Below are positions 12,402-53,094 of a stretch of DNA of 64,000 nucleotides, one piece after another (the first letter of the stretch is position 1; each line of letters starts with the position of its first letter). The DNA comes from Terriglobia bacterium (lineage in GTDB: Bacteria > Acidobacteriota > Terriglobia > 20CM-2-55-15). Under the pieces are notes generated by a model that did no database searches, was not told the origin of the DNA, and worked only from the letters and a program-made list of their open reading frames with translations. The stretch is taken from the NCBI GenBank assembly GCA_965262675.1, contig OZ253554.1, positions 844,496 to 908,495 of the forward strand, in the 5' to 3' direction. A program made the position numbers and the translations under genes.

Positions 12402-12593
12402 CCCGCATGCTGGCAACCCGTGGTATCGCAGGGGACCGGCCCCGGTTTCATTGGACAGATCGTCGACCGTGGCGGATAATCCAGACGTTCATCCGATAAT
12501 CCTTAATCTATCGGCACCTCGATGTACCGAGAAATAATCCTTCCGTCGGTCCGCACTCGGCTGAATTTCGCAAGGGCGGTTTCGAGAGATGGC

Positions 12594-13307: not shown

Positions 13308-13322
13308 CCCGGGAGCAACCGA

Positions 13323-13721
13323 ATGAGTCTTCCACAACACGCGATCCTGGCAACGTTGCCCTCCCTGCTGCTCACCCTGGCGGCCCCGGCGCACCATTCC
13401 GTGGCCGTCAACTTCGACCAGTCCAGAGAAATCACCATCGAGGGTGTGCTCACCGAGATGTCCTGGCGCAATCCGCACTCCCATTTTCGGATCGACGTCG
13501 AGGACAGCGAGGGCCCACAATCGGAATGGCTGGTCGAAATGGGCGCGATCAACACGATGCGCAGAGCCGGATTCGAAGTCGAACTTTTCGTGCCCGGAGA
13601 GACGGTATCGATTACCGGTTGGCCGGGGTGGCGGGATCGGACGCTTTACCTGAGTTCCGCAATCCTGCAGGATGGAACGGAATTGATCTGCGCAGGCGCG
13701 TCCTGCAATCGGGAGAGGTAA
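13323..13721 (+). CDS. small secreted His-His protein (132 aa), partner S of the cassette
   Basis: Signal peptide ends ...AAPA followed by HHSVAVNFD. Conserved W.NPHSHF, E.G..N core shared with ORFs 18171 and 54333. Confidence 0.6.
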   Translation: MSLPQHAILATLPSLLLTLAAPAHHSVAVNFDQSREITIEGVLTEMSWRNPHSHFRIDVEDSEGPQSEWLVEMGAINTMRRAGFEVELFVPGETVSITGWPGWRDRTLYLSSAILQDGTELICAGASCNRER

Positions 13722-35152: not shown

Positions 35153-35314
35153 TCAGGCGCGTGCCTCGCGCCGGTCGCGCCGGATCAAGCGCGCCAAGGC
35201 CACCGACAGCACCGCCACGGCAGTGAAGCCCGGACTCCTGGACAACGAACGCGCGGTGTAGATCGCGTCCTTCGACAGCCGATCGATGGCGGAAAAGGAG
35301 CGCATGGCAGTCAT
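35153..35314 (-). pseudogene. 5' remnant (about 45 codons) of a second ADOP permease gene fused to direct-repeat copy 2
   Basis: Minus-strand translation ...AIYTARSLSRSPGFTAVAVLSVALA aligns with the N-terminus of 27072..29441. The gene body is absent. Confidence 0.5.
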
Positions 35315-35382
35315 TTTATCAGAGGCCGCGTTTCGCCAAACTCACGCCGCCCAGGCGCGTCCACGAACCGCGAGTTGGCGGC

Positions 35383-35808
35383 TTATTTGTTGCCTCTCAG
35401 CAGGCAAATGCCCATCGCGCACGAAAGCAGCGGCAGAGCGGCATCGATGAACCCCCACACGAGAGAGACGGTCTCGGGCCCCACTCCGGTAAAATCGGGG
35501 CTCCGGAAGTTGAACCAGTTCCAGAAAAACAGAATACCCACGAACAGGAAACCGTAGAACAGCGTGCTGGCTGCCAGGAACTCGCGGGTAATCGGCGCGC
35601 CGCCTTCATGGTTGGCGGCTCTCTTGCGGATGTAGCTGAATCTCACGCCCAGCACGATCGCCAACGCCATGAATGGGTTAACGATGTTCCAGATCGGGCT
35701 GTAGGGGCTGGCGTCGGTTGACGCGTAATACAGCGGCTCCACGATCGTGTGAACCGCGACCGCCACGCCGATGACGATGAGACCTGCACCGACAATTCGC
35801 CGGAGCAT
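35383..35808 (-). CDS. hypothetical integral membrane protein (4 TM, 141 aa)
   Basis: Hydrophobic helices; no family recognised. Confidence 0.45.
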   Translation of the reverse strand: MLRRIVGAGLIVIGVAVAVHTIVEPLYYASTDASPYSPIWNIVNPFMALAIVLGVRFSYIRKRAANHEGGAPITREFLAASTLFYGFLFVGILFFWNWFNFRSPDFTGVGPETVSLVWGFIDAALPLLSCAMGICLLRGNK

Positions 35809-36071
35809 ATCCGTGAGTTACCCCCCCTTGCATTGTCCTCACTTTCATCCTTGACTATACGCAACCACAGCCACGGAGGTGCGCAACAGTGTTGTGGCGG
35901 GGCGACGGCAAAAGGCGGATGTGAAGCCGGGTCCTGCATACCCGGCGGCATAGTCCGCATTTTCCATGCGGACAGACTGCCACTTGGTGACCAAGTGAAT
36001 GGGTTCGCATGCGCAAAATCGTGGGTGAACTAATCCGGCGCACATGCGCCGGATGCAACCCGCTAAGCCGA

Positions 36072-36416
36072 CTACAAATCCAGGACCTGCCGGAGTCCGG
36101 AATCGACGCGCGCCATGAGTTTCCGGGAAATTTGTCCAACCCGATCGGAAAGACAGGATTTGTCGAGAGTCACGATCTGCATGATGTTGGCGACAGAGTC
36201 TTGCGGGAGCCCGGTGCTTGTCGCTGGAAGCAGGGTGTTCCCGGGAGCGCCGAGTAGGCGCGTATTCGACGTGAGGATAACACCAAGGATTGTTCTCAAC
36301 CTGCTTCGATTGAAAGCATCCGCCTGAACGATGAGGACGGGGTGGCGAAAACCAGGTTCCGATGCTCGCGGAACATCCAGATCAGCCCACCATACCTCGC
36401 GGCGCGCAACTACCAT
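36072..36416 (-). CDS. MazF/PemK-family type II toxin (endoribonuclease)
   Basis: RREVWWADLD...GFRHPVLIVQADAFN...ILTSN matches the PemK/MazF fold signature. Confidence 0.7.
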   Translation of the reverse strand: MVVARREVWWADLDVPRASEPGFRHPVLIVQADAFNRSRLRTILGVILTSNTRLLGAPGNTLLPATSTGLPQDSVANIMQIVTLDKSCLSDRVGQISRKLMARVDSGLRQVLDL

Positions 36417-36646
36417 TTGCCAGAGCTGACGCTTCGAGCCTGGGCGGTCCTCAACGCCGGATCAAGGCCGTTCGATTCATCGGCGAAAACCTCGTTTAGC
36501 TTAGACGTCACATCCTCGTCACGGTGTTTCGCCAAGTATTCAGAAACCGCTGTGGCGTACAATTCGCTCCTCGACACTCCTTGCCGTTCCGCCAATTCGT
36601 CAGCAGACAGGAACAGTTCGTCCGGTAGTGAGATTGCTGTTTTCAT
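36410..36646 (-). CDS. ribbon-helix-helix (CopG/MazE-like) antitoxin
   Basis: MKTAISLPDELFLSADELAERQGVSRSELYATAVSEYL; overlaps the toxin by 7 nt. Confidence 0.65.
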   Translation of the reverse strand: MKTAISLPDELFLSADELAERQGVSRSELYATAVSEYLAKHRDEDVTSKLNEVFADESNGLDPALRTAQARSVSSGKW

Positions 36647-37395
36647 ACCGAGATTATACCAGCACGGCGACCCTCAAGGCTTGGTTGGGCGACGGCTAGC
36701 AGTGAATTCCGATTGAGCCGCGTGGTATGACCCGCCGGGAGAGAAGGCATTTCGCGGGGAGGAAGCTGTTTTTGTCAAGGGCTACGAAGCCGCTGAAAAA
36801 CCAAGGGGACATTCAAGTCGGTTTGGCCGCTGCCGGATGCTCCAGCCCAGATTGAATTAGCGCGCGGCAGCGAGGACGAGTGATGGGTTTGACAAAAAAA
36901 TGGCTTTGTGATGCGCATCGCGCCAAGCGGTGGTGATCGTATCTCCGAGGCGTTGGAGAAAGACCATCTGATTATCGGATGGTCGGCTGCGAAAGGCCTT
37001 CTTGATGAGGAGCTTCAATGGGAAGGGTTCCGGGAAATCATTCGTAAGACGTACTGCGCCGATGCTGAGAATCTGCGGCAGGCTGTACAGCGCTAGCCCG
37101 CATGGATCACCAGTCGAAGTTTTGGCGTCATTTTGTCGCCGGTAATCGTCTGCGACGAAGTGATGAGGCGTGAAGGGGCGTCTGAGGGCGAAACGAGGCG
37201 TTTTTGAAGACGTGGGACGCGACATTACCTCCATCACCGCTCCGATGGCTACCGGCTGGAGCGACAGTTGCCGGGTGGGTTTCGCACCCACTGAAGATCG
37301 GCGCCTTTTCACGGCGCACTGAGAAAGGCGGGCTAATCGGGACTACCGCGTCGGGGCGGGCGCTGCCGGCATCAACCCAGCCTACTCATTGACAA

Positions 37396-37701
37396 GTGTC
37401 TATAGACACATTACATTCATGGGTGATACGGAGCTTCCGACATCGCGGACTCAAGCGCTTCTACGAGCGCGGAGATCGAAGTCTCATTCGTCCCGATCTG
37501 CACGACCGGGTGGAAGTGATGCTCGCCCAGCTCGATGTCGCCGGCTCCCCTGAATCCATGCGCCTTCCCCAATACCGGCTGCACAGCCTCAAGGGAAACC
37601 TGAAGGGCTATTGGTCGGTCACTGTGAGGGCAAATTGGCGCATCATTTTCCGCTTCGAGAACGGGAACGTTCACGACGTGGAGTTGATCGACTACCACTG
37701 A
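37396..37701 (+). CDS. higB: HigB-family (RelE-fold) type II toxin
   Basis: IRSFRHRGLKRFYERGD...LPQYRLHSLKGNLKGYWSVTVRANWRIIFRFENGNVHDVELIDYH matches the plasmid-maintenance-killer HigB pattern. Confidence 0.75.
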   Translation: MSIDTLHSWVIRSFRHRGLKRFYERGDRSLIRPDLHDRVEVMLAQLDVAGSPESMRLPQYRLHSLKGNLKGYWSVTVRANWRIIFRFENGNVHDVELIDYH

Positions 37702-37717
37702 TGAAAGGAGAAACACC

Positions 37718-38011
37718 ATGCCGATGAAGAACCCGCCGCACCCCGGCAAGGTGGTACGCATATCCTGCCTGGAGCCGCTCGGCCTCAGCGTCACCGAAGG
37801 CGCGAAAGTCCTGGGAGTCAGCCGCCAGGCGCTCTCGAACGTCGTGAACTGCCGCGCCCGCATCTCGAGCGACATGGCGGTGCGACTGGCCAAAGCCTTC
37901 GGTTCGACCACGGAAACCTGGATACGTTTACAGGCCGCCTACGATGTCGCGCAGGCCCAAGCTCGAGAGGATGAGATCGAAGTCGAGCGGTACGAGCAGC
38001 AGCCGGCATGA
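37718..38011 (+). CDS. higA: HigA antitoxin (XRE-family HTH)
   Basis: NPPHPGKVVR...LGLSVTEGAKVLGVSRQALSNVVNCRARISSDMAVRLAKAFGST.ETWIRLQ. Confidence 0.75.
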   Translation: MPMKNPPHPGKVVRISCLEPLGLSVTEGAKVLGVSRQALSNVVNCRARISSDMAVRLAKAFGSTTETWIRLQAAYDVAQAQAREDEIEVERYEQQPA

Positions 38012-38012
38012 G

Positions 38013-38165
38013 GGAACAGTAGATGATGGCTCTCAGGGAGAGAATGGATGAGTTCCCCCCGGCGCGTCGGAATAAAGTGGAGGAGCGAGCCAAGGCGTTG
38101 ATCGCCGAAGAGATGTCCCTGCACGATCTGCGCAGGGCCCGGGAACAAACGCAGGTGCGCGTCGC
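38013..38165 (+). pseudogene. truncated XRE-type antitoxin fragment (50 aa)
   Basis: ...LIAEEMSLHDLRRAREQTQVRVA then stops before any HTH, typical of the N-terminal arm of RelE/ParE-associated antidotes. Confidence 0.3.
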
Positions 38166-38220: not shown

Positions 38221-38340
38221 GGCCGGGGCCAGAATCCTGCGGATTCTGCTTGGGGCTTCCAGCCGGGGCCAGAATCCTGCGGATTCTGCTTGGGGCTTCC
38301 AGCCGGGGCCAGAATCCTGCGGATTCTGCTTGGGGCTTTG
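38221..38340. repeat. 3 x 40-bp identical tandem repeat, each unit carrying the palindrome CAGAATCCTGCGGATTCTG
   Basis: agccggggccagaatcctgcggattctgcttggggcttcc repeated three times; no variable spacers. Confidence 0.85.
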
Positions 38341-38952
38341 CTAATACCCGATTTCAGCGATGCCCGGCGTCAGCCGGATCTGCTCGATCCCCCAGGGAAT
38401 CGTGAACGGCGCGTCCAGGTCGACATCCGGATACCGGGAATTGACGAAACCCTCGACCAGCACGTCGATCACAACCAGGGGAACGGACAACCCGTCCAGT
38501 CGTACCTCGCGCAACTCGAACCGGCCGCGACCGTCGTCCCCGCTCAAGGCGCCCTCGGCGAAAATAGTATGCGTCCCTTCAAAAAGAGTATCGACAATGA
38601 CGTTCCCGGTTCGGTTCTCGGCGTCGAACGTCAGTTCAGTCTCGGCGGAGATAATCCCGTCCGTCACCCGGATGTCGATGGAATCGACCCGGGGAGGGAT
38701 GTCTTCTTCCATCCAGAAGAGGACGAAAGATTCCATCTCGATCTCGCTGACCCGGATCGTGTCCTGCCCCGGGGCACGTCCGGTATCGAGTTCGCGTTGT
38801 CGAATTTCCTGGATCCTGGAACCCAGAAGGTTAGCGGCTTCCGGGGAAACGGATGTGAACTCCTGAGCGGACGAAGGCAGCGAAGCGCATGACAACACAG
38901 ACACCAACGCCATGCAGACCAAACGACCTTGAACCGCCGCAGATCGAGACAT
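38341..38952 (-). CDS. hypothetical secreted protein (203 aa)
   Basis: Signal peptide LVCMALVSVLSCASLPSSAQE; no family recognised. Confidence 0.5.
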   Translation of the reverse strand: MSRSAAVQGRLVCMALVSVLSCASLPSSAQEFTSVSPEAANLLGSRIQEIRQRELDTGRAPGQDTIRVSEIEMESFVLFWMEEDIPPRVDSIDIRVTDGIISAETELTFDAENRTGNVIVDTLFEGTHTIFAEGALSGDDGRGRFELREVRLDGLSVPLVVIDVLVEGFVNSRYPDVDLDAPFTIPWGIEQIRLTPGIAEIGY

Positions 38953-40552: not shown

Positions 40553-41773
40553 TCAATTGCCGGGCAGCGACTGTCCAACGGCATCGATGAGTTCTTCCAT
40601 CCCGTCGAGATCTCCATGAACCCGTTCGTAGACCCGAATCAGTCCATCTCGGGCTTCGGTGCCGGGATACCCGAGGTATACCGCGCGGGCCAGGGCCTCG
40701 ATTGCTTCGGCGCCCTTCTGATCGTTGGCGTAGGCCACGCCCAGCCGGTAGTAGGTTGTGGAGTCGCGCCCGTTTGAATCCAACGCCGCCAGGTACTCTG
40801 CCTGAGCATCCGCAAACCGGCCCCGGTCGAAGTCAATCAGGCCCAGGGCGTTGCGTATCCGGGAACGCAAATCGGCTTCTTGCTCGGGCGGCAGGACGCT
40901 CCCTTCCGGGCCCGACACGATGGAATCCAGGGTCTCGAGCGCTTGGGCGGCATAACCTTCGGCCTCGGTCCTTCGATCCGCCCGCGAACCATCGTCCGAG
41001 GGCAAACTCTCGGCAATCGTTGTCGACATCGTGATCAATGTGAACAGATCGTCGGGAAACAGTTGCAGGGCGCGCCGGCCGTAGTCGATGACTTCGTCCG
41101 TGTTCTGCAATCCCCCGTGTGCCACCATCAGGTTCCGAAAGAAAAAACCCTCGCTGGCACGATGACGCACGGAAGCTTCCGCATACTCTGGAGAATCCGG
41201 CGCCGGGGACGGCGCCGTGATTGAACGCGCCCGCAGGTCGGACGCGCTCTCCAACCCCAGTTCGGCGAACCGAACGGCATCCCTGTAATTACCCAGTCCA
41301 TTGTGGGCCTCGGTCAACGATTCGTAGTACGACACCTTGATCCGTTGGTACTGGAGTTCGGCCTCGGTGAAACCCGGAAGTGTTTCAGCATCCGGCAACG
41401 ACGCCAGGCGGCCTTCCATAAAGGCGGTCTCGGCTTCGAGGGCAGTCTCGGCAATTCCGATGACCGCCGCGAAGTCGCCCATCGACGCAAAAGCGTTCCA
41501 ACGAGCGCGTAGAACGACGGGACGAAGTTCCGATTCGGGATAGCGAACAAGAAACGACTCGGTCAGGTCGAGCCGCGCCGCCATATCGGCCTCGTCCTGA
41601 ATGTCCCTGAATGCGTCGGCTTCGAATTCCGACCGGACCATCGGTGTGAACGGATTGGACTGGGCCAGGGCAAAACTCGCCAGAGCGGCGATCGCCGCCG
41701 ACAGCGCCAGCATCGAACGGCACCGTGCCACGACCGGCCCGCCCGATTCCCTGCCTGGCAGCTTCAACATCAT
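40553..41773 (-). CDS. TPR-repeat protein with a signal peptide
   Basis: Multiple TPR-like helical repeats. The upstream 170 codons of ORF 40553..42286 overlap the next gene and are not coding. Confidence 0.6.
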   Translation of the reverse strand: MMLKLPGRESGGPVVARCRSMLALSAAIAALASFALAQSNPFTPMVRSEFEADAFRDIQDEADMAARLDLTESFLVRYPESELRPVVLRARWNAFASMGDFAAVIGIAETALEAETAFMEGRLASLPDAETLPGFTEAELQYQRIKVSYYESLTEAHNGLGNYRDAVRFAELGLESASDLRARSITAPSPAPDSPEYAEASVRHRASEGFFFRNLMVAHGGLQNTDEVIDYGRRALQLFPDDLFTLITMSTTIAESLPSDDGSRADRRTEAEGYAAQALETLDSIVSGPEGSVLPPEQEADLRSRIRNALGLIDFDRGRFADAQAEYLAALDSNGRDSTTYYRLGVAYANDQKGAEAIEALARAVYLGYPGTEARDGLIRVYERVHGDLDGMEELIDAVGQSLPGN

Positions 41774-41807
41774 GAACTCGTCCCGGCGGCGCGAACCAAC
41801 CCCGATC

Positions 41808-43325
41808 TCAGAGTCCGCACCCGCCGCCGAACGGCGCTTCGATACCGTTTCGCGCCTCAGCCTGCGCGCCGTTGTTGTCGTCGCCGAGACCGGCGCCGGC
41901 TTCGTATTGAACCAGAGCGGCCGCCCGGTCGCATTCGATGTCCAGAATCCGGCCGAGGAATACGTGAGACCATGCGCGCATTGGAAGTTCGGCGGATTCG
42001 CTTTCGATGGTCTGCGCGAAATAGTCCTTCGCCATCTCGGAATCGCCCTCGCGGCTCGCCAGCAGAGCCAGCCCGTACAGCGCCGACCCATTCGCATCGT
42101 CGTATTGCGCGAGCACCGTTTCGAAAGCGGTCCGCGCCGTGTTGTCGTCTCCCGAGTTGAATGCGGCCTGAGCCTCAAGCAGAAGGTCCTGAACCGGATT
42201 CGACGGCGGTGGCTCGGGCACTTCGGCGCGGGGGCCCAGGTCAGGCGCCAGGGCGATCGCATGGAACCGCTCATCGAAGCGCTCACGCTCAGCCTGGAGT
42301 TCTATCTCCAACGCCATTTCGGGAAAATATTCGCGAATCCCGACAGGAGTCTGCTCGAACCGCGCCAGACTATCCATGAAATAGGGTGTCAACAGCAAAC
42401 CTGACCGGTAAGCCGTATCCACAAGACTGTCAACGTTGTCCGCATCTCCGTCGATTCGCATCTCCACGGCCTGAATCAGCGATTCGGTGACCATGACCTC
42501 GAAATCGTCGGTATATTCCGATCGAACTCCTTCGATATCTCGAACCCAGTCCACCATGGCGTTGCTCTCGACCAACTCCTCGCGGCTTCTCCGGACAATC
42601 GCGTCGAGCGCCACGTGGAGATAGCCGTGCCGCACGTCCTCAACCGGATTCTGAGCGTCATAGCCGAAAACCAGATAGAGATTGTCGGTGTAGTTCCTGA
42701 CATGCACGCTGTTGACTGGCGCCGAAAGTTCCAGATATGCGATCAGGCGCCGGCCATCGATTGTTCCCGTCTGCGCCCGGATATACGCCCGGGTCTCAAC
42801 GACGGACTGACGCAACGGCCCCGCCATGACATCCAGAACCTGGTCATAGACCGGCGCCAGTTGTACCCACATCTGGCTGATGTCTGCTTCAAAGTAGAAT
42901 TCGTTGAGCAGTGGGAGGAAGCCATCGAGATCGCGTGCGTCGGGGGGGATGAACAGGTCGTCGGTGACGAAATCCATATCGGGCGGATAGGTCAGATTCA
43001 GGGCAAGGGAAACGTACCGCGCCAATTCGTCTTCGTGTGGCGTATCTCCCCTGTTTTCGGCGTAATATTCAGCCAGCCGTGTTCGAAGGTCGGGATCGAT
43101 GCTTACCAGTCGTTCCCGGACCGCTTCACGCACGGGATGATACTGGGGTGCGAACTCGACGTCGAACCCGGCAACGTTCAGGGCCGCGGTAACGGTAAAC
43201 ACGCGAATGTCGCGGTCGACCGTGGCGCTGGACTGAGAATCGTTAACGATCTGAGCGTCCGCGATGAACAAGGTTCCCCCAAGGACGGACACGACCGAGA
43301 CAGCTAAAATCCAATGACGCAGCAT
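41808..43325 (-). CDS. hypothetical secreted protein with a C-terminal TPR-like region
   Basis: Signal peptide MLRHWILAVSVVSVLGGTLFIADAQ chosen as start; no family recognised. Confidence 0.55.
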   Translation of the reverse strand: MLRHWILAVSVVSVLGGTLFIADAQIVNDSQSSATVDRDIRVFTVTAALNVAGFDVEFAPQYHPVREAVRERLVSIDPDLRTRLAEYYAENRGDTPHEDELARYVSLALNLTYPPDMDFVTDDLFIPPDARDLDGFLPLLNEFYFEADISQMWVQLAPVYDQVLDVMAGPLRQSVVETRAYIRAQTGTIDGRRLIAYLELSAPVNSVHVRNYTDNLYLVFGYDAQNPVEDVRHGYLHVALDAIVRRSREELVESNAMVDWVRDIEGVRSEYTDDFEVMVTESLIQAVEMRIDGDADNVDSLVDTAYRSGLLLTPYFMDSLARFEQTPVGIREYFPEMALEIELQAERERFDERFHAIALAPDLGPRAEVPEPPPSNPVQDLLLEAQAAFNSGDDNTARTAFETVLAQYDDANGSALYGLALLASREGDSEMAKDYFAQTIESESAELPMRAWSHVFLGRILDIECDRAAALVQYEAGAGLGDDNNGAQAEARNGIEAPFGGGCGL

Positions 43326-43373
43326 AATGGTGATGATATCAGGAGCCGGGCAGGCATGGCATTCGGAGAGTGA

Positions 43374-44675
43374 ATGAAAGCAACATACGTTGAAGATGTC
43401 GGAAATCGCATCGGCGAAAAGGTCACGCTGCGTTGCTGGCTTCACAACAAGCGATCCAGCGGGAAACTACGCTTTCTTATCGTTCGTGATGGAACGGGAT
43501 ATCTGCAGGCCGTGGTCTTCAAGAAAGCCGTGTCGGAAGAAACCTTCACGGCAGCAAGCGACCTGACACATGAGTCGTCGTTCACCGTCACCGGCACGAT
43601 CCGCGCGGACGAACGCGCGCCCGGCGGATGCGAGATGGACGTGGAGTCGATCGAACCGCTTCAGATCGTCCCGACCGATGACGAGTTTCCGATCACGCCC
43701 AAGGAGCATGGCATTGAATTCTTGATGGACAAACGCCATCTGTGGATCCGGTCCAGCCGGCAGCGTGCCGTCCTTAAGATTCGACACGAGATTATCCGGG
43801 CCGCGCGAGAATTCCTGGACGACGATGGGTTCACGCTGTGCGACACGCCGATCCTGACCCCGGCAGCCTGTGAGGGAACGACGACATTGTTTCCGGTCAA
43901 TTACTTCAAGGACCAGGCGTTCCTGACCCAGTCGGGCCAGCTCTACAGCGAAGCCACGGCGATGGCTCTGGGAAAGGTGTACAACTTCGGGCCGACGTTT
44001 CGGGCCGAAAAATCCAAGACACGACGGCATCTCACCGAGTTCTGGATGATCGAGCCCGAAGTGGCATTCGCGCAGGTCGAAGACATGATGGACCTGTCCG
44101 AGCGGTTCATCACGCACATCGTGGGCCGGGTCCTGGAGCGGCGCAAAGACGAACTCGAAACCCTCGAGCGCGATCCGGCGCCGCTGGAAGCCGTCGCGCC
44201 CCCCTTTCCTCGAGTCGCGTACGACGAAGCCATCGAGATTCTTCAAAAGCAAGGCTCCGCGATCGAGTGGGGCAGCGACTTTGGCGGCGGCGACGAAACC
44301 GTCCTTTCGAAGGAATTCGACAAACCCATCATCGTTCATCGCTATCCGTCGGCCATCAAGGCGTTTTATATGGAACCCGACCCCGTCCGGCCGGAAGTCG
44401 CGCTGTGTCTCGACGTCCTGGCGCCGGAAGGCTACGGCGAAATCATCGGCGGCGGCCAGCGGACGGCCAGCTACGATTTACTGCTGCAACGACTGGATGA
44501 GCATGGACTCGAAAAAGAGGTCTTTGACTGGTATCTGGATTTGCGGAAGTACGGATCCGTGCCGCATGCCGGGTTTGGAATGGGAATCGAGCGAGTCGTG
44601 GCGTGGATCTGCCATCTCGACCACGTGCGCGAAACGATTCCGTTTCCGAGGATGCTTCACCGGTTGAGGCCCTGA
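43374..44675 (+). CDS. asnS: asparagine--tRNA ligase (class II aaRS, AsnRS-type)
   Basis: N-terminal OB anticodon-binding domain, class II motifs, [24 protein letters not shown] and GGGQR; 433 aa. Confidence 0.8.
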
Positions 44676-44718
44676 AGGGCGTCAGTGGGATATTTCGCGA
44701 AAGGAAGCGGGCATCAGT

Positions 44719-45219
44719 GTGAGCATTGTGGAAATTGAGATTCGACGGGTGGAGTGGTTCAACGGTGGACTGTTCGCGGAAATCCTCTCTACCGCCGCCC
44801 GAAACCTTGTCCTGGCGCTGGAAGCTGAAATGTTGCAACTCTATCCTGGAGATGAGGCAACCGACCACTTCATGTTGGGCGCCGATGAGGTTGCCGTCGG
44901 TCGGGGAGTCTTCATGATTGCGTACAGCGCAACCACCCCAGTCGCCTGTGGCGCCATTCGACTGCGCAACCCCGAGACCGCCGAGATAAAAAGGATGTAT
45001 GTGATTCCCCAAGCGCGCGGCTAGGGGATAGCAGGCCGCCTGTTGGATGCTCTTGAATCGGAAGCACGCCGCCTTGGCGCCAGGAAGGCCGTGCTGGTGA
45101 CTGGGCCGAGGCAGCCTGAAGCGATCTCACTCTATTCAAGAGCCGGGTTCGTCGAGACCGAAGGCTTTGGAAAGTTCAAGGACCATCCGCTGAGCTATTT
45201 CATGGGAAAGCAACTGTGA
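44719..45219 (+). pseudogene. GNAT N-acetyltransferase interrupted by an in-frame TAG at about 45022
   Basis: ...RMYVIPQARG * GIAGRLLDALESEARRLGARKAVLVTG...: the stop falls exactly in the acetyl-CoA-binding R/Q-x-x-G-x-G/A motif. Confidence 0.55.
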
Positions 45220-45240
45220 TGCTCCGGGCCGGTTACTCCA
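45100..45240. repeat. 140-bp direct-repeat copy A (GNAT 3' end); copy B is at 46366-46510
   Basis: About 93% identical copies flank the TA cassette; listed ORF 46163..46495 is an artefact spanning copy B. Confidence 0.8.
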
Positions 45241-45296
45241 TCACGGTCACATCATCAAATAAGGTCACTGGGAAACACGTTTAAGCTTTTCCTGAT

Positions 45297-45509
45297 ATGA
45301 TCTGGACCATGAGCATCAAGGCCGAGTACAGGAACGGGGTCTTCGAGCCCCTGGAGGAAGTGAGCAACACCGATCCGGGAAAAATCTACCAGGTCTTCTC
45401 GGAGGATGAGTTGAGGCGACTCGCCGAGGACCTGCCGTGGCTAGAGGGCTCGGAGCGGAGCTTCGAGTTCTGGGAGAATAAGGAGGATGCCGTCTACGAC
45501 AGTTTATAG
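45297..45509 (+). CDS. DUF104-type antitoxin
   Basis: MSIKAEYRNGVFEPLEEV... matches the AF2212/DUF104 antitoxin N-terminus; overlaps the toxin by 23 nt. Confidence 0.55.
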   Translation: MIWTMSIKAEYRNGVFEPLEEVSNTDPGKIYQVFSEDELRRLAEDLPWLEGSERSFEFWENKEDAVYDSL

Positions 45510-45837
45510 ACAGGGCAACATCGTTCTGGTTTCATTCCCCTTCACCGACCTCACCTCGTCCAAAAGACGTCCCGCGCTGATCATTTCCCCGGATTCCTTC
45601 AACGCTGCCGGAGAGGACCTCGTGCTGGCCGCGATCACCTCGCACATCACGGACGACCCCAATGCGATCCAACTCTCCGACGCGGACTTTGCCGAAGGCC
45701 GGCTTCCGAAGAGATCGATCGTCAAGACGACTAAGCTGTTCACGATGCACTCGTCGCTCATCGTAAAGAAAGTCTGCGCGCTCAAGAGAGAGAAGACAGA
45801 AGAAGCCCTTCGGTCGGTGCGGGAATTTTTTTCATGA
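45487..45837 (+). CDS. MazF/PemK-family toxin
   Basis: RQGNIVLVSFPFTDLTSSKRRPALIISPDSFN. Confidence 0.7.
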   Translation: MPSTTVYRQGNIVLVSFPFTDLTSSKRRPALIISPDSFNAAGEDLVLAAITSHITDDPNAIQLSDADFAEGRLPKRSIVKTTKLFTMHSSLIVKKVCALKREKTEEALRSVREFFS

Positions 45838-45959
45838 GCGAAACGAGATCTCGCAAGCCTTCCTGGACTCAACGGGAAAAACTGATGCTGTCGCACCGAT
45901 TTCCCGTTTGATTCTCATGTGGCGCGGTTAGTGACCATGCCTCTAAAATTCAATGACAT

Positions 45960-46217
45960 ATGGCGATTCAAGCCCTCGCAGACGGCAAATTCCGAATGAT
46001 TTGGCACGACGATCTTGTAACGGCGATATTGGCAGTGACTTCAAGGATGGCCGATCCTGCGTTGCGGAAAAATGATACCGCAATCCAACAGACACGCAAG
46101 AACGCCTCCGATGTCCTTGCAGACCATCCGACGCTCAAGAATCTGTTGCCGACAAGCGACCAATGGCATCTGTACAATTTGTCCCCCGCCCCACGATTTC
46201 TTTGGACAGTGATTTGA
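45960..46217 (+). CDS. hypothetical protein (85 aa)
   Basis: ORF only; inside the repeat-flanked segment. Confidence 0.3.
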   Translation: MAIQALADGKFRMIWHDDLVTAILAVTSRMADPALRKNDTAIQQTRKNASDVLADHPTLKNLLPTSDQWHLYNLSPAPRFLWTVI

Positions 46218-46671
46218 GAGAATACCGAACAGGAGGATCACGATGTCCAGAGGAAGAAATACAGAATCCGGGGGCTTCGCAGGGAGCCCGTAGGGCGACC
46301 GAAGCGGCCCCGGATTCAGCGCGACGCGGGAAGGGCCGTTGGTCGGCCCGGCGGCAGGTCACGGTCGTGCTGGAGACTGGGCCGAGGCAACCTGAAGCGA
46401 TTTCACTCTATTCAAGAGCCGGGTTCGTCGAGATCGAAGGCTTTGGAGAGTTCAAGGACCATCCCCTGAGCTATTTCACGGGAAAGCAACTGTGATGCTC
46501 CGGGCCGCCGCCATTCGGGAGGTCCAGCGACCGGTTGATGTCAACGAAAGAAAAGCGTGATATCGGGAGTGCTTCAAGTCAAATTGCGTAACTGGCAACT
46601 CGACACCGATTGTCGCTGGGTACTGTCGGATCATGTCTGACGCTTACGCTTGGACCGCCATCACAGTTTTC

Positions 46672-49600
46672 TCAGGAATTATGCGGATTAAGAACATCCT
46701 CCAGACGCTCGCGTGCCGCTCGGCTGAGCCGGGCGATTCCTAACGCCCGTGCAAGTTCAACTACATCGCCATTGAGGTCTAGTGTCTCGTCAATGTGTTG
46801 CAATTCTTCCGCGCAGATGTGCTCGGGTTTGCGCATCTCCTCGTCTCGGTTAGCATAGCGCGCGGGGACCAACCGATTCTTGACCGTGCCCTTTCGCCAA
46901 AAGAAGAGGCCGACATCCTCGTTCGTGCGCCCCCGCCGGTTCTTGGCGAGGCGCAACACCAGATTGCGAATCTGACGTCCGGCGCGTTGGAAATCGTGAT
47001 GACGGGCAATTCGACGGCTCAGAATATCCTCATGGATCGGCCCTTCGATATCGACAATGTGATCGATCATCGCTTTAAGCCTCCGTTCGTACTCCTCGTC
47101 GTAGAAGCGCGATGGATCGGGCACAAACGCACCACCAGCAAGACGACTTTTGACGTAACGATGGGTTTCCTCCAGAGCGGTCTCGCTCGAAAAGACGAGA
47201 GACGGCTGCTCCTCGGCGGAATTTACCTGGGCGGCCTTTGCGGTCGCACCCTGGAGGCGGTGCCCCTCATTTCCCGCACGTATAGAGTAAGTCCGTTTGA
47301 CGTCGCGTTGCCGCGAGGACGTCTCCTTGGAGCCGTTTTCGTAAGGTAGGACGCCATCGACGTCTATAGGGCTGTGATCTTCAGAAACCGGCTCTTTGCG
47401 CTCCCCGTCGTCTCTTGCAGCTTTGCGGCGCTGTCTATCCTCCTCCAGATGCTCCCTCAACTGGCGATCGAGCTTTTCGAGCGCCCCCACCTTGTTGATC
47501 CACCAGTCCGTTGACCATACGCGGAAGAGGGTCCAACCGAGTCCCTCCAGCACTTCCTGACGGATCTTGTCGCGTTCCCGGGCGAAGGCGGAACTGTGGT
47601 ACATCGCCCCGTCGCATTCGACGCCCGCGAGATAGACCCCGGGCTCGTCTGGATGGACGACTCCGAGATCTATCCGGAACGAACTGACGCCGATCTGCGG
47701 GTGGATCGTCCACCCTTTCTCACGAAAGGACCGTGCAACGGCAATTTCGAACGGCGATTCGAAATCTCCAAGCGAACCGTGAACACCTGCGCCAAGCGCT
47801 ATCGGCCCGCGTTCGGCATATTCAAGAAAATGCTTCAGATCCTTCACCGCTTCCGCGTTCGTGCGGGAAAGGTCGATCTTATCGGGGTGCAGTGTCGCGA
47901 AAACGACCATCTCAGAACGCGCTCGAGTCAATGCAACATTGAGGCGCCTTTCGCCCCCCTCCCGGTTCAAAGGACCGAAATTCATAGACACATGGCCGGA
48001 TTGGTCCGGCCCATACGTAACGCTGAAGAGGATCACGTCGCGTTCGTCGCCCTGAACAGTCTCGAGGTTCTTGACGAATACCGCCTCCTGATGGTTCTCA
48101 TCGAAAGCCCATTCGATGCTCGGATTGGCGGCCCGCGCCCTATCCAACAGATCCTCGATTAGCGACTGCTGTTCTGTATTGAAAGTGACGACACCGATGG
48201 TGGCCTGTTTCACCTCAGGTTCGTCCGAAGTGAGGCGCCGGACGACCTCAGCGACGATCACTTTCGCCTCTCGTTCATTGTGTCGCGCCTTGCCACGGGC
48301 ATAAAACCCGTCGGGCCGGACCAACCGAACGCCGGAATCCGGACGGATCGGCGCCGGGAAGGTGATGAGGCTGTTGTCGTAGTAGCGACTGTTCGAGAAG
48401 GCGATCAAGCTTTCCCGGCGGGAGCGATAGTGGAGATTGAGCGTGCATTCCGGGATGCTGGAGCTTCGCAATTCGTCCAGGATACTCTCCAGATCACCGT
48501 CATAGTCGATGTCACCGTCAGGATCGTCGTCAGCGCGGTTGAAAAAGTTGGTCGGCGGCATCTGCTTCGGATCGCCTGCGACAATCACCTGCATCCCGCG
48601 CGCTATCGAACCCACGGCATCCCAGACCGTGATCTGCGACGCCTCGTCAAAAATCACCATGTCGAACAAGGCTTGTTCCGCCGACAGATATTGCGCGACG
48701 GAAAGCGGCGACATCATCAGACAAGGGGTGAGCTTGGTTACCACATCGGGTGCCTCTTGCATCAGTTGGCGTACCGGCTTATGACGCTTTTTCTTGTTGA
48801 TCTCGTGCCGCAAGACGCCCCATTGGGAACTTTTCTTCACATCATCCTGAACCGGGATCTGGCCGCTCAGTCCGGCTGCGATATAGGCTGCCGTAATCTT
48901 TTGGAAGGATGCGTCGATCTGCCGGAACTTCTCGATCGTATCCATATGTTCGGCGGTCGAGAATGTACGTAGCACCTCGTCTTCGCCAATCACCATAGAC
49001 GACCACCAAGCGCAATACGCGGCCTCAAACGTCTCCAGAATCTCGTCAATGGGAACACGCCCCTTCTCGATCCCGTCTACCAGCGGTGCAAGGTCGAGAT
49101 CCATCGCCTCTGTCCGCCGCTTTCGCCAGGCACACCAGTCATGCAACTCCGCTCGCCGGGCAATGATCGTCTCGGCAGTCTCACACAATGCCTCAAGCGC
49201 CCGGTCTTTCTCCGAAAAAGCCTCGCGCACGACGCGTCCGGCGCGCTCTTCGAAGGCCCGGCTTGCACTCTGCAACGTGTCGAGTGTCTTCAAATACTCC
49301 GCTGCCGCGCGGCCCACAATTGCTTCCGGGGCAAGCAGGTCATTGCCGTCCTGCAGAAGCATCCGCACCTTGCGACGCACCTCCGCTAGCGCCTGCGCAT
49401 CGTCGGCGAGCCATCCGACCGATGTGCGCGCTCGATCGCCCAGATCTCGCAACGCCTGCGCGGCCTGCGGATCGGTCGTGTGCGCCTCCCACTCCTTGAG
49501 CGAGGAAAGTTGCTTGTCGAGGCGATCGATCGCCTCGCCCTCCTCGCGAAGTGAGGTCAGCAACGGGGCGTCGCGCGCAGGATTCGGCTCGCCTCGGGCC

Positions 49601-52600
49601 CCACCTTTGCGCATCGATTTGATGACGGCACGCTGGGCGAATATTTTTTTGGGCCACCAAGTACGTTCCGCCTCTGCCCAGTGCAACGCGACCTCTTGAC
49701 CGTCGGTCGCCCTCCAGGCCATCGGATCATAAGGACAGCTCAACCGAGCCTGCGCCGCAGCATAAGCTTTGAGGCGGTGAACTGCCTCTTCCAGCGCTTC
49801 GATCCGGTCCTGACCGTCTGGCTCCAGCGCGTAGGCGGTCTGTCTACGATATGACTCCGTCAACACGCGCGCGAGATCAGCGAGCGCATCGAGGCGTCTC
49901 ATGGTCTGGTCGGGCAGCGTCAAACCGACGGTCTCACAAAGCGCGCGCGCAGCGTGATCGGCAGCCTTCGCGGCGGCGGAGAGCGCGGCAGCGCGGCCCA
50001 CCAGTTCACCCTCCCACTGCGGTGTCCATCCTGAGCTCGCTACGAGTTGCAAAGGGCTTTCCGTGATCTCGCCCACAGCATGGGCCTGAATCTTCAACAT
50101 TTCGGCCGCCGCACGCATCGCGGCGAGTTGCGCCTCGTCATGCTGATCGGCTTTCGGCCAAGAAAGATTGATCCGCGAGCCCAACTCTTCGTCGCGCACC
50201 TTCACGCCAATCGCGTAGTGGGCGGTTAGACCGTTCCGCCGCCTGCGGTGCATATGATCAATGAATCGATTGAGTTGGTCGCGTAAGATGCGTAGTCGCT
50301 CCGCCTCCTTCTCCCAAACCTCGGCCGTGCGGCTTTTTCCAGTGGACCAAGCGGTTTCGAGTTGATTTAACACGTCCGCCTTTTTGGCCTTGTTGGAATG
50401 GAGTTCCAGACAGAAGCGCCCCAGTCCGATGTCATCGAGACGACGGTAGACGACGTTGAGCGCCGCCGTCTTCTCCGAGACAAAGAGAACCTTCTTTCCC
50501 TTTCCGAGAAAGTGCGCGATCAGATTGCCAATAGTCTGGCTTTTGCCCGTGCCGGGCGGGCCGATGATTATGAAGTCCTTGCCCCTATCCGCCGTCGCGA
50601 CCGCCGCCATCTGGGACGAATCCGCCGGCAGCGGGACAAGCAGTTCGGAAGGCTTATAGTCGCGATCGATCCGATCCGTCTCGACGAAGGCGATCTTGCT
50701 CCCATAGGCCTCGCGCGGGGTATCGATCAGGTGCCGGACAACCGGATTCTCCCGCAGTGCATCCGTCCGATCGATCAGATCCTTCCACATCAGGAACTTC
50801 GCGAAGGAAAAATGGCCGAGCACCACGTCCTCCACGACCTCGAAGCCCGGCGCGTCCTTGACTGCCTTGCGCACCTTTTTCCAGATACCATGGACGTCGA
50901 CCCCACTTTCGTCCTCGGGAAGTGCTCCGTCAATGCCTTTGATATCGATTTCGAAATCCTTACGCAGCATTTCGAGGAGGGTGGTGTTAAAGCGCGGCTC
51001 GTCGTCATGCGCAAGCATCTTGACGCCGCTACGGACCGACTGGCGCTGCAGGGTGACGGGCATCAAGATGAGGGGGGCACGGAAGCGATGGTCTTCCTTT
51101 TCATCCCGCTTCCAGAGGAGGAAGCCGAGGGCGACGTAGAGCGTGTTCGCCCCGCCCTCCTGCAGCGCTGTCCGGGCCTTGCGGTAGATTTCGACAGCGC
51201 GCTTCGAGAGGTCCTCTGGTGGAAGATCGACCAACACTTGACCCCGATTCAGCGCGTCGCGGGCGTACTCCTCTGTGATTAGTTCGCCGGTGCGTTGTTC
51301 ATGGAGATCAACGTCCTGTGCTTGGGAAGTTGCCTGCCGCAAAACCTGGATCGAGATCTTGCTCCCATCTGCAAGTTTGTCTTCGAGTAGCCCTGGATCG
51401 GGGCAGACGATCTTCAGGCTTGCCTTGGTCGATTTGTGATTCAGAAGTGGATTGCGCGCGGAGAGGTCAAGCAGCTTGCGTTGCCAACGCTCCAAACGAC
51501 CGGCCGGAGTCTCCGGCTTCTGTTCCGTGACGTCCTCGTCGAATCGGGGCAACGCCGGCGCCTCCTCCATTGGAAGCTCGACGGCCTCAATCCCCTGGCC
51601 GTCTGGACCATTCGTAGGCGTCTCCCCTTTCAGCCCCAGCGGCAAAATCCGATGCGCACGAGCGCGACGAATGTCGACCGCGACGCTGAACGTTTGGTCG
51701 CGCTCTGGGGCGACCTGCTCCATTGCGCGAGCAATCGCTTTCGAAAAAGGCGGCGCCGGATACGAAGTGGCCAGCGTCGTTTCAATCAGGATGAGTTCCT
51801 GCAATTGATAGCGCTTGCGGAGCGTCTCGGCGTCATCAATCACAATGGTGGTGAGCTCTTCCGGTTGTAGCCAGACGCCGACCATGGCATGGTCCTTCGG
51901 CATCGCGATGATGGGATTGAGGCCCGCTTGCTCCAACACAGAGGCGAACAGCATCGTGGTGTCGAGACATGTTGCAATCTTGCGCTCCCAGATCTGGCTT
52001 GGCAGGCGGATTTTCTGGCCGTCGCGCTCAAAGCTGGCCGGGGGAACAGCATAGACGATCCCGAGATTGGCGATTGCCGTGTAGATAGCTGACGCCATTT
52101 CCCAAATCCGGTGCCGACTGCCGGAGCTATAGCCGTCGAGGCCGTCGGGCTTGCCAGCTTGGCGCAGAAGCTTTGAGGCCTTGTGCAAAATCCGGTCAAC
52201 TGCCGGGTCATTCGGCATCGAAAAAGCTGCCAAAAGCTCCGGCATATAGCCCGAACCACCCCATTCATTGAAAGCGAGAATCTCGACGGGCTTAGTCACC
52301 TCGGTCAGCACCTCACCCCCAGTCTCGACTCGGATCGAGACCGCCCCACGCAGTGAGTCGGAGAGGTCAAGCAGGAAACCGCCATCGAGATCGATATCAC
52401 GATGCCTGACCGAAACAACCCCAGCCGCGGCTATGCGATCGATGCGCCAGATCTTCGGCTTTATGAAGCCCGGATTCGCACTAAGCGTTACCAGAACGTC
52501 GTCGAGACGATTCTCCTCGTCCAGGTTTTCAATTCGGAGATCCCGCAACACGGGATATGCACTTTGGTGGCAGGCGAAATTCAACTTCGCCGCAATTTCA

Positions 52601-52638
52601 CAATGAATTGCGACGGTTCGATCTTTGGCGTCGTCCAT
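46672..52638 (-). CDS. 1988-aa DUF4011 / Upf1-like SF1 helicase (AAA_11/AAA_12) / REase (Vsr/DUF559-like) / DUF3320 protein (Hhe-like architecture)
   Basis: Walker A IIIGPPGTGKSQTIGN, motif VI VALTRARSEMVVF, endonuclease core GVECDGAMYHSSAFARERDKIRQEVLEGLGWTLFRVWSTDWW, and a C-terminal DUF3320-like tail. Confidence 0.85.
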   Translation of the reverse strand: MDDAKDRTVAIHCEIAAKLNFACHQSAYPVLRDLRIENLDEENRLDDVLVTLSANPGFIKPKIWRIDRIAAAGVVSVRHRDIDLDGGFLLDLSDSLRGAVSIRVETGGEVLTEVTKPVEILAFNEWGGSGYMPELLAAFSMPNDPAVDRILHKASKLLRQAGKPDGLDGYSSGSRHRIWEMASAIYTAIANLGIVYAVPPASFERDGQKIRLPSQIWERKIATCLDTTMLFASVLEQAGLNPIIAMPKDHAMVGVWLQPEELTTIVIDDAETLRKRYQLQELILIETTLATSYPAPPFSKAIARAMEQVAPERDQTFSVAVDIRRARAHRILPLGLKGETPTNGPDGQGIEAVELPMEEAPALPRFDEDVTEQKPETPAGRLERWQRKLLDLSARNPLLNHKSTKASLKIVCPDPGLLEDKLADGSKISIQVLRQATSQAQDVDLHEQRTGELITEEYARDALNRGQVLVDLPPEDLSKRAVEIYRKARTALQEGGANTLYVALGFLLWKRDEKEDHRFRAPLILMPVTLQRQSVRSGVKMLAHDDEPRFNTTLLEMLRKDFEIDIKGIDGALPEDESGVDVHGIWKKVRKAVKDAPGFEVVEDVVLGHFSFAKFLMWKDLIDRTDALRENPVVRHLIDTPREAYGSKIAFVETDRIDRDYKPSELLVPLPADSSQMAAVATADRGKDFIIIGPPGTGKSQTIGNLIAHFLGKGKKVLFVSEKTAALNVVYRRLDDIGLGRFCLELHSNKAKKADVLNQLETAWSTGKSRTAEVWEKEAERLRILRDQLNRFIDHMHRRRRNGLTAHYAIGVKVRDEELGSRINLSWPKADQHDEAQLAAMRAAAEMLKIQAHAVGEITESPLQLVASSGWTPQWEGELVGRAAALSAAAKAADHAARALCETVGLTLPDQTMRRLDALADLARVLTESYRRQTAYALEPDGQDRIEALEEAVHRLKAYAAAQARLSCPYDPMAWRATDGQEVALHWAEAERTWWPKKIFAQRAVIKSMRKGGARGEPNPARDAPLLTSLREEGEAIDRLDKQLSSLKEWEAHTTDPQAAQALRDLGDRARTSVGWLADDAQALAEVRRKVRMLLQDGNDLLAPEAIVGRAAAEYLKTLDTLQSASRAFEERAGRVVREAFSEKDRALEALCETAETIIARRAELHDWCAWRKRRTEAMDLDLAPLVDGIEKGRVPIDEILETFEAAYCAWWSSMVIGEDEVLRTFSTAEHMDTIEKFRQIDASFQKITAAYIAAGLSGQIPVQDDVKKSSQWGVLRHEINKKKRHKPVRQLMQEAPDVVTKLTPCLMMSPLSVAQYLSAEQALFDMVIFDEASQITVWDAVGSIARGMQVIVAGDPKQMPPTNFFNRADDDPDGDIDYDGDLESILDELRSSSIPECTLNLHYRSRRESLIAFSNSRYYDNSLITFPAPIRPDSGVRLVRPDGFYARGKARHNEREAKVIVAEVVRRLTSDEPEVKQATIGVVTFNTEQQSLIEDLLDRARAANPSIEWAFDENHQEAVFVKNLETVQGDERDVILFSVTYGPDQSGHVSMNFGPLNREGGERRLNVALTRARSEMVVFATLHPDKIDLSRTNAEAVKDLKHFLEYAERGPIALGAGVHGSLGDFESPFEIAVARSFREKGWTIHPQIGVSSFRIDLGVVHPDEPGVYLAGVECDGAMYHSSAFARERDKIRQEVLEGLGWTLFRVWSTDWWINKVGALEKLDRQLREHLEEDRQRRKAARDDGERKEPVSEDHSPIDVDGVLPYENGSKETSSRQRDVKRTYSIRAGNEGHRLQGATAKAAQVNSAEEQPSLVFSSETALEETHRYVKSRLAGGAFVPDPSRFYDEEYERRLKAMIDHIVDIEGPIHEDILSRRIARHHDFQRAGRQIRNLVLRLAKNRRGRTNEDVGLFFWRKGTVKNRLVPARYANRDEEMRKPEHICAEELQHIDETLDLNGDVVELARALGIARLSRAARERLEDVLNPHNS

Positions 52639-53094
52639 GCTGCCCCCCCTGAAAGTAGATCGTCCATCGTTACGCCGACATTCCCCAAATGACTTACAAA
52701 TTCGGCCAGATGTAGCTAAACGGATCCCGTATCGGAACCAAGAACAACGTCTCGATCGGATGGAGCAAGTTTTCGACTGCTGGACCGCCTGAAACGACCA
52801 TTCAGATTGAGCCGATTCCGTTCCATCCAGAAACCTTTCTCCTTCACACGTCTCCGTTCTGTCGTCCCCTTAGATTGCAACCATGGCCAATGGTCGCAAT
52901 ATGTCGATCCCCCGCAAGATTTTCAGAAACAGATCAGTCTGCACGGCAACCTCAGCAAATTGGAAGGTGACGTATATCACCAATCAATCGGGCGCACGTC
53001 CTGAAGACATATTTAGTTGCCGTACGTTGTAAATCTTCTGACTTCATCCGACAGTACGCAGCAGCAATCGGAGTCGAGTTCCCAGCTAAACACT

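Follow-up and report, generated by a model that had tools for sequence, protein, structure and literature searches.

Why a small acetyltransferase gene should carry a stop codon in the middle of a conserved motif, and why its 3' end should recur on the far side of a toxin-antitoxin (TA) pair, are the questions raised by the asnS-GNAT locus of a Terriglobia bacterium (contig OZ253554.1, positions 844,496 to 908,495). This stretch of 64,000 nucleotides (nt), analysed at its full length, is called the window here, and coordinates are counted from its first letter. The original prediction, made from the letters alone, saw at this place the scar of an insertion or duplication that had delivered the TA pair and had perhaps inactivated the upstream copy of the GNAT gene. 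Comparison with sister strains separates the two events and points to a different origin of the repeat. The locus is probably a variable island hotspot lying 3' of the asnS-GNAT pair, which has grown by homology-anchored additive recombination and has been eroded by deletions associated with insertion sequences (IS).

The host lineage is an uncultured, Terriglobia-like soil member of the Acidobacteriota, and its close relatives are contigs from long-read soil metagenome assemblies, found by exact-protein look-ups and a GNAT homology search (L001, L002 and L083 to L088; European Nucleotide Archive ERZ25067264, ERZ25068833, ERZ25069191, ERZ25071132, ERZ25072076 and ERZ21829562). L002 is 99.1% identical to the window over 40894-49785 and has the same layout, and L001 is 97.7% identical, its contig ending at window position 46161. 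The GNATs of L083/L084, L085/L086, L087 and L088 show 79-94% protein identity. The synteny of asnS and GNAT is kept in all of these contigs, and asnS is the conserved left anchor of the variable locus. Among GTDB species representatives, the best matches to the asparaginyl-tRNA synthetase (AsnRS) come from metagenome-assembled genomes of Acidobacteriota/Terriglobia at no more than 66% identity (65% for the best); none of these has a GNAT or TA gene adjoining asnS, and they are uninformative about the empty site. A further contig, L094 (1.39 Mb, from another genome), holds a homologue of the inserted DNA. The features of the locus, with protein lengths in amino acids (aa), are the following.

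43374-44675, plus strand: asnS, asparaginyl-tRNA synthetase, 433 aa, with Pfam tRNA-synt_2 (E 2.5e-73) and an OB anticodon domain.
44719-45219, plus strand: GNAT N-acetyltransferase gene of 166 codons, substrate not assigned, with Pfam Acetyltransf_1, Acetyltransf_7 and Acetyltransf_10 matches.
45022-45024, plus strand: in-frame TAG, from the glutamine codon CAG, at the x before G-I-A in motif A (R-G-x-G-I-A).
45087-45231, plus strand: repeat copy A, the last 133 nt of the resident GNAT open reading frame (ORF) including the stop codon, plus 12 nt downstream.
45238-45285, plus strand: linker between the GNAT tail and the TA block, origin not assigned, outside the L094 homology (which starts at 45286) and identical in L001 and L002.
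45297-45509, plus strand: putative antitoxin gene, 70 aa, or 66 aa from the ATG at 45309, overlapping the toxin gene by 23 nt.
45487-45837, plus strand: PemK/MazF-family toxin gene, 116 aa, with a full-length profile match to Pfam PF02452 (E 7.4e-17).
45960-46181, plus strand: 5' part (about 73 codons) of a third gene, function not assigned, cut by the IS; the L094 homology stops at 46184.
46182-46374, plus strand: truncated left end of an IS3-family element, with terminal inverted repeat, ribosome-binding site and about 43 codons of orfA, containing a 1-nt frameshift.
46362-46374, plus strand: 13-nt microhomology GGTCGTGCTGGAG where IS3 orfA meets the GNAT remnant.
46363-46507, plus strand: repeat copy B, the orphan 3' remnant of a second, diverged GNAT allele, reading VLETGPR.
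46508-46645, plus strand: flank native to the 3' side of GNAT, at 84% identity with what comes right after the single GNAT in L083/L084.

The original prediction had suggested looking in related genomes for an empty site, a single intact GNAT with no TA insertion, and such a site exists. The only GNAT of L083/L084 directly adjoins the homologue of window 46508-46645, and compared with these contigs the window carries 45232-46507 as extra DNA. The sister strains carry other cargo at the same place. L083/L084 hold a DUF3800 gene, an IS66 remnant, a TIR/SEFIR gene and a type I restriction-modification (RM) system, with no second GNAT copy. In L085/L086 the cargo is a DUF8371 protein, a 70-aa ORF and an IS256 fragment, followed by a second copy that comprises 490 nt of the asnS 3' end and a complete GNAT, and then by NACHT, Mrr and type I RM genes. 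L088 has a TIR gene and a second copy made of an asnS 3' fragment and GNAT, and L087 has an internal GNAT fragment with HigBA after it, along with an IS4 element. The right boundary is fixed, the cargo point lying 12-20 nt past the GNAT stop in every strain, and the left boundaries of the second copies all differ (44187, 44418 and 44954 in window-equivalent positions, and 46363 in the window itself). Across the four strain backgrounds, with their different cargo, nucleotide identity between first and second copies is 88-94%, and at this distance the second copies are diverged alleles rather than fresh duplications. No integrase or recombinase was called in the loci of L083 to L088 or among the window ORFs scanned across 36-63 kb. 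The arrangement of the window recurs, trivially, in L002 only, at 99% identity, and an ancestral, stable structure is not what the relatives display.

The inserted DNA is foreign to the locus. Window 45286-46184 is 93.7% identical to L094 9240-10138, where the copies of the antitoxin, MazF and third genes lie in a neighbourhood that also has IS elements, another PemK TA pair and a large serine recombinase, and where no GNAT-like sequence lies next to the cargo. A C5 DNA methylase gene adjoining a Vsr endonuclease gene (L094 4390-6233) and the large serine recombinase gene, with DUF2924 (11782-13488), are found within 5 kb, which places the cargo block in a mobile-element-rich region of L094. 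The TA pair (45268-45850) is also 86-87% identical to copies in unrelated contexts in L089 and L090, and the architecture of a 66-aa and a 116-aa protein recurs in L089, L090 (twice) and L094. The toxin has 469 MazF homologues, many at 75-89% identity and from soil bacteria. Exact look-ups of MazF, of the antitoxin and of the 110-aa ORF described below returned only L001 and L002 among the matches listed. Compared with L094, synonymous and nonsynonymous differences stand at 3:4 in the antitoxin and 8:7 in the toxin, counts too small for a reading of selection.

Of the three genes originally placed between the repeats, a DUF104 antitoxin, a MazF toxin and an 85-aa ORF, the toxin is borne out by its profile match. 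The antitoxin scores 18.7 bits with PF01954 (AF2212-like/DUF104), below the cutoff of 21.6 and over residues 7-23 only, and has no NCBIfam hit. Given the toxin fold and the overlapping, conserved partner, the pair is nevertheless predicted to be a type II system of the MazEF/PemK kind. The 85-aa ORF (45960-46217) does not stand as a gene: it is what remains of a longer gene, with its last 12 codons supplied by the inverted repeat end of the IS. In L094 the frame of this third gene runs for about 155 codons, with P0242 a called gene of 126 aa. The 85-aa ORF has no Pfam, NCBIfam or PADLOC hit, and the homologues found were its own copy in L002 (P0241) and P0242.

The element that interrupts the third gene could be traced through intact relatives. 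Window 46173-46317 matched two short stretches of L090, and a scan of metagenome contigs with a conserved 22-mer led to L091 and L093, whose intact elements encode an orfA product of 129 aa with HTH_Tnp_1 and an orfB product of about 314 aa with HTH_21 and rve; terminal inverted repeats are present in L093, and these intact relatives belong to the IS3 family. Window 46182-46374 is 88% identical (169/193) to the left end of the L093 element, the first 74 nt at 100%. No full IS3 element was found in the window, where the IS is a fragment with its right end deleted and not a functional member of the family.

How this fragment ends identifies the left boundary of copy B. The 13-nt string at the joint is also present in the orfA of the IS (L093, ACGGTCGTGCTGGAGCTG) and in GNAT alleles (second copy of L085, AAGGTCGTGCTGGAGACTGGG), and since the same string occurs in both parents the boundary is a microhomology deletion joint. 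BLAST pushes the similarity of the repeats leftwards to 46350, but this extension is IS3 orfA and not GNAT. A 110-aa ORF (46163-46495) reads GARRATEAAPDSARRGKGRWSARRQVTVVLE and then TGPRQPEAISLY, an orfA N-terminus fused to a GNAT C-terminus, the fusion frame at the joint itself being GKGRWSARRQVTVVLE followed by TGPRQPEAISLY. A larger analogue is found in L085 (9121-9975; L086 5634-6488), where one ORF joins an internal IS256-family transposase fragment (Transposase_mut 164-288/379), without a shift of frame, to ~170 codons from the 3' end of asnS; a complete second GNAT of 163 aa comes next. Classical IS-mediated adjacent deletions begin exactly at the IS terminus. The window resembles them in that one IS end is kept, the other end and adjoining DNA are lost, and a short identity marks the joint; the joint here, however, lies inside orfA, and a RecA-independent microhomology deletion is more likely than one made by the transposase.

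The hairpins at 46170-46365 (z = -3.4) had been considered as an RNA element, but they have no Rfam match and proved to be the IS3 end with its start-codon hairpin. This long hairpin brings the ribosome-binding site and start codon of orfA into pairing with the terminal repeat region, a GC-rich hairpin follows, and the arrangement looks like the translational occlusion known for IS ends. By eye, the two arms of the first hairpin are also present in both copies in L090. The latter (L090 5473-5582, plus strand, and 6209-6352, minus strand) are incomplete versions of this IS3 left end, placed in inverted orientation on either side of sequence that, by eye, resembles degenerate reading frames of RelE/HigA type, and they lie just 3' of a MazF pair 86% identical to that of the window. 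This IS family seems to frequent TA clusters.

The stop codon in GNAT has a separate history. The Acetyltransf_1 match (PF00583, E 2.3e-14, residues 60-144) places the product in the GNAT family, and it is 93% identical to that of the intact homologue P0001. A GTG at 44719, with the ribosome-binding site AGGAAG 10 nt 5' of it, is probably the true start in all strains; relatives have their GNAT start called at an in-frame GTG further upstream (172-aa products), which reads GCG in the window (44698-44700). As originally described, the frame is broken only by the TAG in motif A, the acetyl-CoA motif Q/R-x-x-G-x-G/A, where R-G-stop-G-I-A aligns with RGQGIA of P0001 to P0004, and the coding sequence is therefore not that of a working GNAT. 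The residue at this position is Q in the four closest homologues and R, Q or L across the wider family. Base 45022 is C (codon CAG) in L002, L083, both L085 copies and L087, and the codon is CAA in L001. TAG terminates 12 of the 36 long non-overlapping ORFs of the window, the signal peptidase gene among them. The glutamine codons of the relatives and this ordinary use of TAG as a terminator indicate a recent nonsense change or a base error, not recoding. To judge from the sequence, GNAT is thus a pseudogene in the window genome only, through a single C-to-T change from CAG to TAG, or else the base is wrong. The suspected inactivation of the upstream copy thereby holds for the window genome, but its tie to the insertion does not: L001 and L002 carry the same cassette beside an intact glutamine codon, and the inactivation is unrelated to the arrival of the TA pair. 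Exact look-ups of AsnRS and of the 101-aa truncated GNAT gave no match, and thus no independent assembly carrying the TAG.

It is possible, although doubtful, that position 45022 was wrongly called or assembled as T and that GNAT is intact. Such an error might have arisen at a methylated CCWGG site, CCAGG being read as CTAGG: the ancestral context GGCCAGGGG contains CCAGG with its second C altered, and another C-to-T change of the window lineage falls on a CCTGG site at 40943. However, differences linked to CCWGG are not enriched, amounting to 2 of 43 substitutions relative to L002, with such sites making up 1.8% of positions, and the other window ORFs examined read through whole, with no frame-breaking signs. 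A hotspot of 5-methylcytosine deamination or error at CCWGG, considered on its own, fits the context and lacks the enrichment, and it was kept as a minor possibility.

The direct repeat itself was described nearly as it is. Its copies (45087-45231 and 46363-46507) are 145 nt long and 94% (94.5%) identical, at an offset of 1276 nt, and differ by no more than a few bases in position from the ~140 bp at 93% first reported (45100-45240 and 46366-46510); there are only these two in the 64-kb window. What the repeat represents is another matter. Copy B is 94.5% identical to copy A, 93.8% to the second copy of L085 and 90% to L083, but its 5' two-thirds carry the states of another allele class (GGAGAC, CAACCT, with VLETGPR as in P0002 to P0004), in place of the GGTGAC and CAGCCT (VLVTGPR) of copy A, L001 and L083. 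In the last ~27 nt, including the 12 nt past the stop codon, copies A and B of the window agree with each other and differ from copy A of L001. The latter stands beside a cassette free of differences but retains the native tail TGATGGTTGGGGCTG, which L083 and the first copy of L085 also have. We infer that the shared tail is a patch of gene conversion from B to A.

A local tandem duplication of the GNAT 3' region in this lineage, by slippage or unequal crossing-over, with the TA block and the IS inserted between the copies later, would account for A and B being closest to each other overall and for a derived 27-nt tail that is common to both and absent in other strains. Such a duplication is nonetheless unlikely. 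It does not explain why the 5' two-thirds of copy B have the states of the other allele class and not those of copy A, nor why the full-length second copies of sister strains are just 81% identical in protein to their first copies, and copy identities already suggest that second copies cluster with the primary-position alleles of other strains. Gene conversion is also the simpler explanation of the shared tail, as L001 has a native tail beside an identical cassette. The repeat is not a target-site duplication, and it is not an att site either. Of the insertion or duplication scar first proposed, the insertion stands, relative to the empty site of L083/L084; a simple scar of TA arrival does not, the downstream copy being a diverged allele remnant cut by an IS3-associated microhomology deletion, with analogous second copies of other boundaries and cargo in other strains.

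The island is young. Compared with L001 there are no substitutions across 45250-46161, 15 in 45000-45250 and about 2% in the core, and compared with L002 there is one substitution in 45023-49785, set against about 1% divergence upstream. Near-zero divergence of the island relative to the core implies that the block of TA pair, IS, remnant and helicase gene is much younger than its strain backgrounds and has moved between them.

Additive recombination offers a scenario for these observations, and a homologous anchor, a foreign insert and a displaced, diverged resident copy are all present at the locus. DNA from a diverged strain, carrying asnS-GNAT and new cargo, would have been added rather than swapped, with homology anchoring the exchange on the core side and an illegitimate event on the far side, and this addition would have pushed the resident allele downstream, as in homology-facilitated illegitimate recombination. 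The same process would have made the asnS'/GNAT second copies of the sister strains, and the fixed right boundary would be the end of core homology. Within the cargo block of the window, the sequence shows that an IS3-family element entered the third gene and that a later deletion joined orfA codon ~43 to codon ~119 of the second GNAT copy at the 13-nt microhomology. Lost in this deletion were the remainder of the IS and of the interrupted gene, along with the 5' part of the second GNAT. The 145-nt tail left over is copy B, still on its native flank. More generally, IS activity and microhomology deletions may trim displaced copies after their displacement. The two repeats would since have swapped a short patch by gene conversion, and they could also delete the cassette by RecA-mediated recombination.

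Several points weigh against this scenario. Additive recombination is derived from the pattern and from analogy with sister strains, the original illegitimate joint being gone, overwritten by the IS3-associated deletion. The allele typing of the 145-nt copy B rests on about 8-10 informative sites, and these are mosaic. The switch from divergent to identical sequence relative to L001 falls exactly at the boundary of GNAT tail and linker (45237/45238), which pure homologous recombination explains poorly, so that a process with a preference for this site keeps a small chance. The comparison contigs come from low-coverage long-read metagenome assemblies (1x-20x), in which single differences may be errors, and at the level of the assembled sequence a true TAG and a base-calling or assembly error look alike.

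A more specific version of events is that the partial asnS'/GNAT copies are portable homology arms that move with the cargo, allowing defence and TA modules to hop and stack by RecA alone. The 100% identity of the island across three diverged core backgrounds and the switch of L001 at the GNAT tail would fit such arms, which we consider an improbable proposal. If it were true, portable arms would provide integrase-free accretion of defence islands, parallel to the orphan arrays of the Rhs, contact-dependent inhibition (CDI) and type VI secretion system (T6SS) loci discussed below.

It is quite unlikely that the 1.28-kb unit of one repeat and the TA block is, or was part of, a site-specific integrating element whose attP mimics the GNAT 3' end and whose integration would restore the gene, the repeats being attL and attR and the integrase being lost or supplied in trans. 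The constant start of the cargo 12-20 nt past the GNAT stop in all strains would suit an integration site, as would the fact that three strain backgrounds share the cassette at 100% identity whereas L001 departs sharply in the GNAT tail next to it, and the cargo homologue of L094 lies about 2 kb from a large serine recombinase. However, no integrase was called among the window ORFs scanned across 36-63 kb, around the unit, or in the sister loci, and each strain has its own left boundary for the second copy (44187, 44418, 44954 and the equivalent of 46363), which in the window is demonstrably a joint of IS3 orfA and GNAT at a microhomology. In L094 the cargo has no GNAT-like sequence beside it.

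Decoding of the TAG as glutamine or another residue by a suppressor tRNA, programmed readthrough or pyrrolysine-type recoding, which would keep GNAT in production and which the original prediction had allowed for, is very improbable, for although the ancestral residue is the glutamine that supE-type suppressors put in at UAG and the rest of the frame is intact, TAG is a normal terminator in the window, no tRNA gene lies within the 64 kb and no Rfam element matches at the locus, and the TAG is unique among the relatives examined, all of which have glutamine codons, even the 99%-identical L002, a pattern of recent nonsense mutation or error.

Further features lie on both sides of the locus. A helicase-nuclease gene of 1988 aa (46672-52638, minus strand; DUF4011/AAA_11/AAA_12/MTES_1575/DUF3320), which matches PADLOC PDC-S37 (1251 bits) and Hhe, is bracketed by a 57-nt imperfect inverted repeat (81%; 46589-46645 and 53032-53088). 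L083 has the 57-nt motif once, directly after GNAT, which suggests a separate event for the helicase gene, inserted or inverted at this motif. On the other side, a segment of about 3 kb (35202-38162) is missing from L001, L083 and L084. It holds two TA pairs, an RHH antitoxin with a PemK toxin (36072-36646, minus strand) and a HigB-like with an HTH HigA-like protein (37396-38011, plus strand), and is a second strain-variable TA islet. At its right edge (38222-38341) a 40-nt unit stands three times in tandem (100%, 100% and 93%), and BLAST against L001, L084 and L087 splits into overlapping pieces there, which may reflect a different copy number.

Each ingredient of this locus is known, namely a nonsense pseudogene, a floating MazF-type TA pair, an IS remnant, an orphan tail and a defence hotspot; the locus and its lineage are new, and the kind of structure is not. 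The closest parallel is provided by the arrays of orphan 3' fragments and immunity genes at Rhs/CDI and Vibrio cholerae T6SS loci, ascribed to sequential displacement by homology-facilitated illegitimate recombination (PMC5361080, citing Prudhomme 2002 and de Vries & Wackernagel 2002). Both have a conserved upstream anchor, new cargo and a displaced, 5'-truncated older copy downstream, and both show repeat events with differing remnants per strain and no dedicated recombinase. In contrast to those arrays, the anchor here is a housekeeping asnS and a small GNAT rather than a polymorphic toxin gene, the cargo is of the TA/defence type, and the left edge of the remnant has been re-cut by the IS3-associated deletion, which hides the original joint.

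Defence and integration hotspots between core genes, as in the E. coli pan-genome (PMC10121019) and in the P. aeruginosa core defence hotspots (PMC10250203), likewise offer a fixed site beside conserved genes with differing defence/TA cargo in close strains; the cargo seen here includes TIR/SEFIR, type I RM, NACHT, Mrr, HigBA, MazEF and the PDC-S37/Hhe-like helicase. As points of difference, no integrase or other recombinase was found in the loci examined here, and the conserved flank is partly duplicated. The acquisition and erosion of chromosomal type II TA systems (PMC13617665) is a third parallel, in that a small MazF-type module sits in a high-turnover spot beside IS remnants and has near-identical copies in unrelated contexts. 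The difference is that the TA pair here is intact, and it is the neighbouring gene, the IS and the GNAT copies that are the eroded parts.

The locus thus displays the everyday erosion of a hotspot where genes are exchanged; it is a case neither of recoding nor of a new mobile element, and it has little significance beyond annotation. For annotation, GNAT is best entered as a pseudogene or marked for a check of the reads, neither the 85-aa nor the 110-aa ORF should be listed as a gene, and the repeat should not be described as an att site. Its modest value is that of a clean example, in an uncultured soil Acidobacterium, of an island that grows by displacement of a flanking allele and is then trimmed by IS-linked microhomology deletion, with a population of sister contigs that displays the empty site and several alternative states.

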